This document shows, piece after piece, positions 13,986 to 16,044 of a stretch of 64,000 nt of DNA (position 1 is the first letter of the stretch; every line of letters starts with the position of its first letter). The stretch lies in the UHGV virus genome UHGV-1372970; one strand, given 5' to 3'. Below the pieces are notes generated by a model that was given only the letters and a program-made list of their open reading frames with translations, ran no database searches and was not told the origin of the DNA. A program made the position numbers and the translations under genes. The DNA comes from a virus.

Positions 13986-14656
13986 TTATCCTATTCTTCC
14001 AAAGATTTCCATTAATTGCTCTTTGGCGTCAGGGTCTGCTTTCACTTTCGATGGATCGTAGACTTTATCGGTTACGACTGGTCTTCCTACCCGGTATTGC
14101 AAACCCTCCATGAACGCCGTAGCGTCTTCCGCCCCCGCCTGTGCTACTCGTGACACCTGGAAACCTCTCAGGTCGTCTTCTGCTTTTAGACGGTCGATGT
14201 TGCGGCTTAGCATCCAGAAGGTTGCCAGTGGCAGCATCAGAACTTCTCGCGGCGAAATGGCGTAATAAGCAATAACTCGGCTGAAGTAGAATCCGAAGTC
14301 GATAGAGATCGTAACGACACCGGATTCTTCGCGGGAAATTACTTTACTTCTTCACCGGCAGCGGCTTCGTTCTCTTCATCTGCCTGTTCCATGGCAAAGG
14401 TGAAGATCTGCTGAAGCTGCGGAATACTCAGACGATTGATAACTTCCTGCGGAACGTCTGGCATAACCTCAGCCACCAGGCCAGCGTATGCCTCAACCTG
14501 ATCCAGCATGGACATCGACTCGATGTCTTTACCTTCGAAGGCTTTGACTTTGGCAAACAAACCAACGGTCATTTCGGCAATGGCATAGGTTTTACCAGCC
14601 AGTTTGATTTCTTTTTTAGGTGGAAGGATGGAATCCAGATCCAGTAACTTAGTCAT
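13986..14656 (-). CDS. Tail assembly chaperone GT-like fusion, produced by a -1 frameshift near the end of the G-like ORF.
   Basis: The -1 frame opens just after the stop at minus-strand ...GAA GAA GTA AAG TAA. It continues as RSKVISREESGVVTISIDFGFYF... through the annotated ORF 13986..14237. Confidence 0.55.
14339..14656 (-). CDS. Tail assembly chaperone (gpG-like).
   Basis: 105 aa with an acidic C-terminus, directly upstream of the tape-measure gene. The overlapping -1 frame is open downstream. Confidence 0.7.
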   Translation of the reverse strand: MTKLLDLDSILPPKKEIKLAGKTYAIAEMTVGLFAKVKAFEGKDIESMSMLDQVEAYAGLVAEVMPDVPQEVINRLSIPQLQQIFTFAMEQADEENEAAAGEEVK

Positions 14657-14707: not shown

Positions 14708-15453
14708 TTAAGCGGTTACAGTTACGGTGACTTGCGAGGACACAATCGCACCGTCTTTCGTGGTAAACGTAATCTTCGCAGTACCCGTTGCCACACCCTT
14801 CACAACGCCATTGGCGTCTACAGTTGCAATCGCTGGGTTACTTGAAGTCCATGTACCACCTTTTTCATCTGCGGTTGACGGGGCAATCGTCTTAGTCAGC
14901 GTCGTTGTTGCTCCAACTCTGACTGACGCCGAAGCTGGCGACACAGTCACTCCCGTCACTTTTACTTTGGGGCCGAGAGAGTCCCCAACACGCCGGTGTC
15001 ATCCGGGTACGCATTGAACTCAACAGAGAACACGCGAACATCATCTGACTTATAAGCCATGGTGAAGTTACCACCGGTAGCGGCATTCGGTAGAGTCAGA
15101 ATGAAGTCAGTACCATCTTGCGGGGTCAGTACCAATTCCTGAGCAACATCAACGAGGTTGACGCCCTGCGCCGATTTGATGCTCAGCGTTTTGCTGTCGG
15201 TTGACATACTAGAACCAGGCATCAGGTTAACCATGTTCGCAAGCACGCTTTCGGCCAGCGGTACGGTTACTTTGATGTTACGACCCTGAATCAGCTCAGA
15301 GATGGTGGTTTGGCCTAACTGGTCAACGGTCACTTTCAGGGTTTCGGTAGAAACTTCCACCTCTACACCGCCCTTTGTGTAACCCAGATCAGCACCTGCA
15401 AAGGTCACTGCACAGGCACCTAGTTTGATATTTTTTACATGGGTATTAGCCAT
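14708..15453 (-). CDS. Major tail protein with C-terminal Ig-like (Big_2) extension, produced by a -1 programmed frameshift.
   Basis: The slippery heptamer C CCA AAG (plus-strand ctttggg, 14965-14971) sits immediately before the TAA at 14962-14964. The -1 frame continues as PKVKVTGVTVSPASASVRVGATTTL...VTVTA, a Big_2-type Ig fold. Confidence 0.7.
14962..15453 (-). CDS. Major tail protein.
   Basis: 163 aa, beta-rich, abundant-protein-like. Position between the tail terminator and G-like genes. AAGGAG ribosome-binding site. Confidence 0.75.
   Translation of the reverse strand: MANTHVKNIKLGACAVTFAGADLGYTKGGVEVEVSTETLKVTVDQLGQTTISELIQGRNIKVTVPLAESVLANMVNLMPGSSMSTDSKTLSIKSAQGVNLVDVAQELVLTPQDGTDFILTLPNAATGGNFTMAYKSDDVRVFSVEFNAYPDDTGVLGTLSAPK
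14965..14971 (-). promoter_or_regulatory. -1 programmed ribosomal frameshift slippery site (CCCAAAG).
   Basis: X XXY YYZ heptamer in the 0 frame, two codons before the stop. The downstream -1 frame is open for 85 codons. Confidence 0.65.
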
Positions 15454-15493: not shown

Positions 15494-15515
15494 TAAGTAA
15501 GTATATACTTACTTA
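15494..15515. promoter_or_regulatory. Conserved palindrome type 2 (TAAGTAAGTATATACTTACTTA), perfect 22-bp copy upstream of the major tail protein gene.
   Basis: About 13 related copies across the window, listed in findings. Confidence 0.6.
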
Positions 15516-15603
15516 TTTAAGCATTGCAATATCATAAGTGCGCTTGGTATAAACTTAGAAGGGAAATGGGGGCCATCACCCCCGTAGCCAACTGCCTGCT
15601 TTT

Positions 15604-16044
15604 TTAATCTTTTTTATTCATTTTCTTCTGGTACGCCTCGACCCCATCGGAGCAGGCGGTTGCGTAATTGTAATACTCTCGATTAATCATACCGGTCACG
15701 AAGTCATAGCGCGGGTATATATCGGTAAGAAAATCTTTTTCCTGATCGTTGAATTTTTTTGTCTCAAGGATTAGATCAGAAGCAAATTCAGTTTCAAAAT
15801 CATTGCCATGGGCGTCCCTGCCTTTAACCTTGCCGCACACGATATACTCGCCAAACGGGAGCTTGTTCTCTGCATGAAGATCAACGAACTTCATATCTGA
15901 AAATGTCGCCGACTCTGGGTCTGCCAGACGGGTCTTGACCTTCATCTTCGCAAATTCAATCGCTTCGGTTTCCATCTTATTATCGTCACAACCCGTAATA
16001 ACGACCGATAAACCAACAACCAACCCAATCAACGTTTTCTTCAT
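15604..16044 (-). CDS. Lipoprotein (moron inside the tail module).
   Basis: MKKTLIGLVVGLSVVITGCDD signal peptide with a lipobox. AT-richer than the flanking genes. Confidence 0.7.
   Translation of the reverse strand: MKKTLIGLVVGLSVVITGCDDNKMETEAIEFAKMKVKTRLADPESATFSDMKFVDLHAENKLPFGEYIVCGKVKGRDAHGNDFETEFASDLILETKKFNDQEKDFLTDIYPRYDFVTGMINREYYNYATACSDGVEAYQKKMNKKD

Follow-up and report, generated by a model that had tools for sequence, protein, structure and literature searches.

The window, that is, the entire 64-kb stretch of DNA analyzed here, carries on its minus strand a 163-amino-acid (aa) open reading frame (ORF) for a tail tube protein and, in the -1 frame relative to it, an extension encoding a Big_2 Ig-like domain (Table 1). 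The tube ORF has the C terminus ...GVLGTLSAPK; its last codons are TCG GCC CCA AAG TAA, with the stop codon at positions 14962 to 14964. An initial annotation had described an ending ...GTLSAPK-TAA preceded by the slippery heptamer C CCA AAG, and both are confirmed in the sequence. The heptamer has the X XXY YYZ phase of a bacterial -1 frameshift site with respect to the 0 frame, and the TAA stop follows directly on its 3' side.

Table 1. Features of the tube/Ig locus, with positions in the window and the evidence for each
Feature	Position	Strand	Evidence
Tail tube (major tail) protein ORF, 163 aa, 0 frame	14962..15453	-	ORF list, phrog_1280, AlphaFold/Foldseek, gene order
0/-1 frame overlap, 34 nt	14965..14998	-	Frame scan; same 34 nt in all eight close plasmid relatives
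Slippery heptamer C CCA AAG, X XXY YYZ phase, proposed -1 shift site	14965..14971	-	Sequence, conservation
-1-frame extension, Big_2 Ig-like domain	14708..14964	-	Translation, Pfam, phrog_1280, dN/dS
Candidate stimulatory RNA, branched fold	14876..14958	-	MFE of -34.4 kcal/mol, z = -2.34 (100 nt after heptamer)

A Pfam scan of the 163-aa ORF returned no match, and its identity as a tube protein was therefore taken from PHROGs and structure prediction. The ORF matched positions 1 to 163 of the 248-position profile phrog_1280 (E = 7e-89). An AlphaFold model based on 49 homologs reached a pLDDT of 80 and a pTM of 0.70, and its best Foldseek matches in the PDB were tail tube proteins (probability of 1.0, TM of about 0.5 to 0.6) that span siphophages, myophages, and contractile injection systems. 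The tail-tube fold, the PHROG match, and the gene order bear out the label "major tail protein" of the initial annotation.

The -1 frame is closed upstream by a TGA at positions 14999 to 15001 and opens 34 nt upstream of the 0-frame stop, which confines any joining shift to positions 14965 to 14998; the heptamer forms the 3' end of this overlap. The -1 reading from the heptamer, PKVKVTGVTVSPASAS...VTVTA*, comprises 87 residues including PK and ends at a stop codon at positions 14708 to 14710 (translation start, PKVKVTGVTVSPASASVRVGATTTL...VTVTA). As proposed earlier, the frame stays open for 85 codons past the heptamer and encodes a Big_2 domain, confirmed by translation and by a Pfam match (E = 1.2e-19). 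The predicted fusion would thus have 163 + 85 = 248 aa (~26 kDa). Its expected junction, ...SAPK-VKVTGV..., matches the -1-frame translation, and the predicted junction peptide is ...GTLSAPKVKVTGVTVSPASASVR. When compared with PHROGs, the Ig ORF aligned with positions 164 to 244 of phrog_1280, the same profile that the tube ORF matches, and its sequence also matches the C-terminal Ig domains carried by lambda gpV and T5 pb6 (2l04, 9mfe, 7qg9). The frame overlap, the Big_2 match, and the dN/dS values given below indicate that the frame is open across the heptamer and specifies a real, selected protein segment.

The heptamer C_CCA_AAG is listed as highly shift-prone in Escherichia coli (Atkins et al. 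2016, PMC5009743). CCCAAAG occurs three times on both strands of the window, compared to 8.0 ± 2.9 copies expected from shuffled sequences; one of the two further copies runs antisense to a gene, the other falls in a small ORF of doubtful status, and neither is comparable to the copy at the tube stop. Such scarcity may reflect avoidance of a shift-prone heptamer, a deficit that is not significant when taken alone.

We consider it highly probable that a programmed -1 frameshift at C CCA AAG produces a tube-Ig fusion of about 26 kDa. Most ribosomes would stop at the TAA after the heptamer and release the 163-aa tube protein. A fraction would slip back by one base at the heptamer, as the Pro and Lys tRNAs re-pair with CCC and AAA, and would then read GTA AAA GTG... 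to yield a 248-aa tube protein with a C-terminal Big_2 domain. Slippage is probably stimulated by the structured RNA that begins 6 nt downstream of the heptamer. The tail tube would consequently carry the Ig domain on some subunits only, whereas in SSU5-type in-frame relatives every subunit carries it. Both the slippage itself and the role of the RNA structure are what we infer from sequence. Every computational test run supported the earlier proposal that such a shift fuses the Big_2 domain to a fraction of the tube subunits. By analogy with other phages, the extension presumably mediates weak adhesion to cell-surface or mucosal carbohydrates.

The surrounding genes place the locus in a tail module with the order tail terminator (PF12691), tube, two small chaperone-like ORFs, and a 1,507-aa tape measure. 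This order is the same as in Salmonella phage SSU5, and the module shows both the synteny and the homology expected of SSU5-like phage-plasmids. Over its entire length, the predicted fusion aligns with a single in-frame CDS (245 to 248 aa) in each of four phages, namely, SSU5, Klebsiella phage ST13-OXA48phi12.3, Escherichia phage PhiR41_1, and Klebsiella phage pJN2-26, in all of which the CDS is annotated as "Ig domain-containing protein". Across SSU5-type relatives, tube and Ig domain lie in one frame and form a protein of 245 to 253 aa. As the fusion aligns in one piece with these CDSs, the window is an SSU5-like Klebsiella phage-plasmid.

At the DNA level, a megablast search of the region against deposited phages gave no match, and relatives were recovered only by protein comparison and among the plasmids of PLSDB. 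There, the region matches the 111-kb circular plasmid pCAV1099-111 of Klebsiella oxytoca (98.9% DNA identity). Eight other plasmids match the region at 95 to 99% identity and about 20 Klebsiella plasmids at approximately 85%; the Klebsiella phage-plasmid group is widespread and counts at least 29 PLSDB records, plus many metagenomic contigs.

The arrangement of a tube ORF with the Ig domain in the -1 frame (here termed split, as opposed to in-frame) was examined in 80 IMG/VR loci and in contigs encoding more divergent 163-aa homologs. It was found in all eight PLSDB plasmids fetched, 11 IMG/VR contigs, and five further metagenome or SRA lineages. The eight plasmids share the same junction, with the heptamer followed by TAA or TAG and the Ig domain in the -1 frame. 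Dozens of independent assemblies represent at least eight diverged split lineages, which are mutually related, so that counting them as independent overstates their independence. The 0-frame stop is TAA in the window group and in lineages L088, L098, L100, and L101; TAG in the group at about 85% identity and in L102; and TGA in L103. Across these lineages, identity to the window falls to 75% for the tube and to about 45% for the Ig domain.

C CCA AAG is exact in every split lineage, directly followed by the stop codon, while the preceding codon varies (GCC, AGC, AAC). In contrast, the corresponding site drifts among in-frame relatives, where about 20 of some 70 loci have a nonslippery sequence (T CCT AAA, C CCT AAA, or G CCT AAG). 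The initial annotation had held that a heptamer mutated in relatives that keep both ORFs would speak against a frameshift. No such case was found: the heptamer is invariant wherever the gene is split, and synonymous variants are confined to in-frame loci. This conservation exceeds what coding alone would require; wherever the Ig domain depends on a shift the heptamer is fixed, and where no shift is required it drifts freely. Its recurrence, base for base, in at least eight diverged lineages argues that the arrangement is beyond chance.

The only serious rival is independent initiation. Reinitiation or new initiation at the GTG at positions 14957 to 14959 would yield a free 83-aa Ig protein and no fusion. 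It had been anticipated that ORF callers would report a separate GTG-initiated Ig gene, and this is borne out: an 83-aa ORF at 14708..14959 is listed, and gene callers annotate separate Big_2 ORFs. In all nine aligned split-lineage sequences, moreover, a GTG is found at codon 5 of the -1 frame, 2 to 3 nt past the 0-frame stop. However, no lineage has a Shine-Dalgarno-like sequence 4 to 12 nt upstream of this GTG, which is itself part of the 5' arm of the predicted helix described below. Nor was a conserved Shine-Dalgarno sequence found across relatives before any GTG of the Ig ORF; a GGGAG located 5 nt before the third GTG in the window was rejected as a candidate, as relatives read GGGTG or GGGCG at this position. 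Free Ig protein would have no evident route onto the virion, and in all in-frame relatives the Ig domain is covalently attached to the tube. Nor would independent initiation account for the invariance, confined to the split lineages, of rare codons (CCA, AAG, and a preceding codon with C in third position). Overall, we regard two separate proteins as improbable and retain the frameshift fusion. Among the in-frame relatives (65 to 86% tube identity), tube and Ig domain form a single polypeptide; in the window, the fusion would depend on the frameshift.

A pseudogene, with an ancestral in-frame tube-Ig gene disrupted by a frameshift mutation and its Ig domain no longer expressed, is very unlikely. 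In-frame relatives of the kind such a history requires do exist, and the eight PLSDB records list no CDS in the tube/Ig region and skip a locus tag there, which fits a pseudogene call. Genuine Ig truncations also occur in the in-frame clade (P0012, P0014, P0015, P0029, P0033, L091). These, however, lie at scattered positions and resemble ordinary mutations or assembly errors, whereas the split lineages are always broken at the same slippery heptamer. The Big_2 match also remains strong.

Furthermore, the Ig ORF is intact in at least eight lineages and bears the signature of purifying selection in the -1 frame. In comparisons of the window with L010, L088, and L102, where synonymous sites are unsaturated, dN/dS was 0.13 to 0.34, and the same DNA gave dN/dS values above 1 in the other two frames. 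Deeper comparisons (L100, L103, and L098) were saturated at synonymous sites and provide no ratio, with pN (0.30 to 0.33) well below pS (0.74 to 0.85). The Ig domain has thus been maintained as a coding sequence for a long time although its frame differs from that of the tube gene, a pattern that rules out a decaying pseudogene.

Least credible of all is a sequencing or assembly error, or transcriptional rather than ribosomal slippage, at the short homopolymers of the junction (C4 and A3): the identical junction recurs in dozens of assemblies made independently, across sequencing platforms and hosts, and the difference from in-frame relatives is a linker indel of 2 or 22 nt rather than a 1-nt homopolymer change, on which grounds a homopolymer error was rejected, while efficient transcriptional slippage needs runs of roughly 7 to 9 bases, far above the 3 to 4 present.

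Disruption of the Ig domain is frequent in the in-frame clade; in L091 (IMG/VR 3300014614_000001), for instance, 47 nt are deleted directly 3' of the heptamer, and P0029 represents 77 member sequences. Such disruptions may mean that the domain is dispensable, or some of them may be assembly errors.

The initial annotation had suggested a search for a stimulatory stem-loop or pseudoknot downstream of the heptamer, and a candidate was found. The 100 nt following the heptamer are predicted to adopt a branched fold, whose closing helix pairs UGACGGG (positions 14952 to 14958, 6 nt after the heptamer) with CCCGUCA (14876 to 14882). The same closing helix was predicted in L010, L088, L101, and L102. 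In L098, the equivalent helix is UGGCGAG/CUCGCCA, with both arms changed; because its 3' arm is shifted by one codon, the changes were rejected as column-wise covariation. L100 and L103 are without the closing helix and have only local hairpins 8 to 10 nt downstream. The z-scores of the eight split lineages (-2.34, -2.36, -3.31, -4.49, -2.92, -2.92, -4.46, and -0.35) were lower than the values for this stretch in eight in-frame relatives (-0.31 to -1.59). Split loci were thus more structured (one-sided Mann-Whitney P = 0.005, a value that overstates independence because the lineages are related).

The lineages nevertheless do not converge on one fold. Base pair counts in three lineages exceeded those of shuffled controls, but most pairs never vary and strict covariation is limited; the closing helix, which overlaps conserved codons, shows no variation in most lineages. 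An RNAalifold consensus over nine lineages was weak (-3.9 kcal/mol). A single conserved RNA structure was accordingly dropped, leaving the lineage-wise helices and the z-score contrast, which make the downstream RNA a candidate stimulator. Upstream, a GGGGA lies 10 nt from the heptamer, with dnaX-like spacing, and encodes a conserved Leu-Gly. As it is equally present in the in-frame relatives, this possible Shine-Dalgarno-like stimulator does not distinguish the two forms.

The heptamer probably predates the split, since it is present in most in-frame relatives. Directly 3' of the heptamer that both share, the split clade has a 22-nt indel relative to its closest in-frame relatives (L013 to L019, 85 to 86% tube identity); compared to the SSU5 type, the linker differs by 2 nt. 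A tree of the tube domain grouped seven of the eight split lineages into one clade with the in-frame L013 group as its sister, whereas in the Ig-domain tree the L013 group adjoins split lineage L103. The eighth lineage, L098, was missed by the search pattern and is absent from both trees; placed by pairwise identity, its tube is 78 to 80% identical to SSU5-type proteins and about 75% identical to the main split clade. Given the conflict between the trees and the identities of L098, the split arrangement would be either old or switched or exchanged more than once. Ig-like domains have been described as spreading by nonhomologous recombination, with insertions that may or may not be in frame; some of those out of frame are rescued by frameshifting (PMC5009743). 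The apparent origin of the split fits this view.

Ig-like extensions of phage virion proteins by programmed frameshifting are established (PMC5009743; PMC9022992). The gp17.1/gp17.1* pair of Bacillus phage SPP1 resembles the arrangement proposed here in that one gene gives two tube proteins by a frameshift at its 3' end, placing an Ig-superfamily domain on a fraction of the subunits (PMC9022992). However, SPP1 uses a +1 shift and an FN3 domain, whereas the window has a putative -1 shift at C CCA AAG, a Big_2 domain, and a Gram-negative host, and no sequence relationship between the two is detectable. In Lactobacillus phage A2 (major head and major tail proteins) and in the coliphage T3 capsid, a -1 frameshift near the gene end likewise adds an Ig-like C-terminal extension (PMC5009743). 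Those cases concern other proteins and hosts, and the extension was proven there at the protein level, whereas here it is read from the DNA. Listeria phages A118, A500, and PSA also produce a C-terminally extended second major tail product by recoding; in contrast to the window, to which these phages are unrelated, +1 frameshifting was reported for the tail gene (PMC5009743).

As in the predicted fusion, a tube domain is followed by Big_2 in lambda gpV and T5 pb6. There, the Ig domain is in frame and present on every subunit, a state shared by the SSU5-type relatives. The lambda G/GT chaperone genes, whose frameshift site is G GGA AAG, provide another parallel, namely, a -1 slip on an XXA AAG-type site in the tail cluster, and the window also has a G/T pair. 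The lambda product differs in having a chaperone function rather than decorating the virion.

Our search of the literature on SSU5 frameshifting and on pCAV1099-111 found no prior description of the proposed slip site. It is the occurrence of this site in SSU5-like elements that is new; the mechanism itself is already known in other phages, and no new mechanism is opened here. The locus adds a well-supported Gram-negative example of substoichiometric Ig-like tail decoration by recoding. With in-frame, split, and Ig-less forms at the same codon, it also offers a convenient system for studying the function and dose of the Ig domain. As the elements live in clinically important Klebsiella, phage adhesion to capsule or mucus could affect host range.

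The arrangement also bears on annotation. In all eight PLSDB records fetched (L005 to L012: NZ_CP011594, CP018360, NZ_CP031578, NZ_CP097685, NZ_CP057316, NZ_CP101792, CP067502, and NZ_CP084809), no CDS is listed for the tube/Ig region, and one or more locus tags are missing from the numbering. As pseudogenes are left out of PLSDB, these gaps suggest that the gene is probably recorded as a frameshifted pseudogene in RefSeq throughout the plasmid group. Pipelines split the tube gene into two ORFs or apparently flag it as a pseudogene, where a single gene with a programmed -1 frameshift would be the proper annotation.

Recoding at codon 163 could in principle run in both directions and set the level of tube decoration throughout the family. 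In the split lineages, a -1 slip would add the Ig domain; in the in-frame relatives, the same slip would yield an Ig-less tube protein, much as E. coli dnaX makes gamma from tau by this kind of slip. In most in-frame relatives (among them L001, L003, L013, L050, and L068), C CCA AAG or C CCA AAA is retained where the two domains meet, and a stop codon closes the -1 frame 2 to 3 codons after the heptamer (PKAG*, PKA*, or PKTG*). As about 20 of the 70 in-frame loci are nonslippery, an Ig-less product is not a general requirement, and we regard such a family-wide, two-way recoding point as rather doubtful. If it were true, the family would represent a natural series in which a preexisting slippery site moves decoration between full and partial occupancy.

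More distant tube genes end in a different sequence at the same codon. Loci from Xenorhabdus (L093), Moellerella (L094 and L095), and Providencia (L096 and L097) encode 163-aa tubes, 63 to 66% identical to that of the window, at locus positions of about 1980 to 2100. These ORFs end in K-K-K-stop, encoded by A AAA AAA AAG (nine A's and a G) followed by TAA or TAG. Their -1 frame is open for 30 to 48 further codons, encoding a hydrophilic, non-Ig sequence that differs among the three genera, and the gap between tube and chaperone genes is too short for an Ig domain. Recoding may take place at the same codon in these loci, by either ribosomal or transcriptional slippage.

Between the tube and tape measure genes of the window, ORFs of 105 aa (14339 to 14656) and 83 aa (13986 to 14237), both on the minus strand, look like a G/GT chaperone pair. 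A terminator scan between the Ig stop codon and the chaperone gene did not flag the hairpin there, whose T run has only 4 bases. The pair looks as if it has a -1 frameshift of its own. The 105-aa ORF ends in GTA AAG TAA, and the 83-aa ORF lies in the -1 frame, which is open from position 14351, placing the putative slip site at about 14342 to 14345. The window has no full slippery heptamer in this G/T overlap. The two frames overlap by 10 nt in the window and by 7 nt in L098 and L103; with so short an overlap, a slip would be possible only on the A AAG just before the stop. The chaperone ORF ends in ...A AAG plus a stop codon in all 17 relatives checked.

A further ORF of 146 aa with a lipoprotein-type signal (MKKTLIGLVVGLSVVITGC...) lies between the tail terminator and tube genes (15604 to 16044, minus strand). 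SSU5, the other in-frame phages, and L007 to L009 have no such ORF at this position. ORFs that resemble it in size (441 to 450 nt) and location lie there in L005, L006, and L010 to L012. The 146-aa ORF is flanked by a terminator-like hairpin (15568 to 15583) and a promoter-like site (15500 to 15529) and looks like an inserted accessory gene ("moron").
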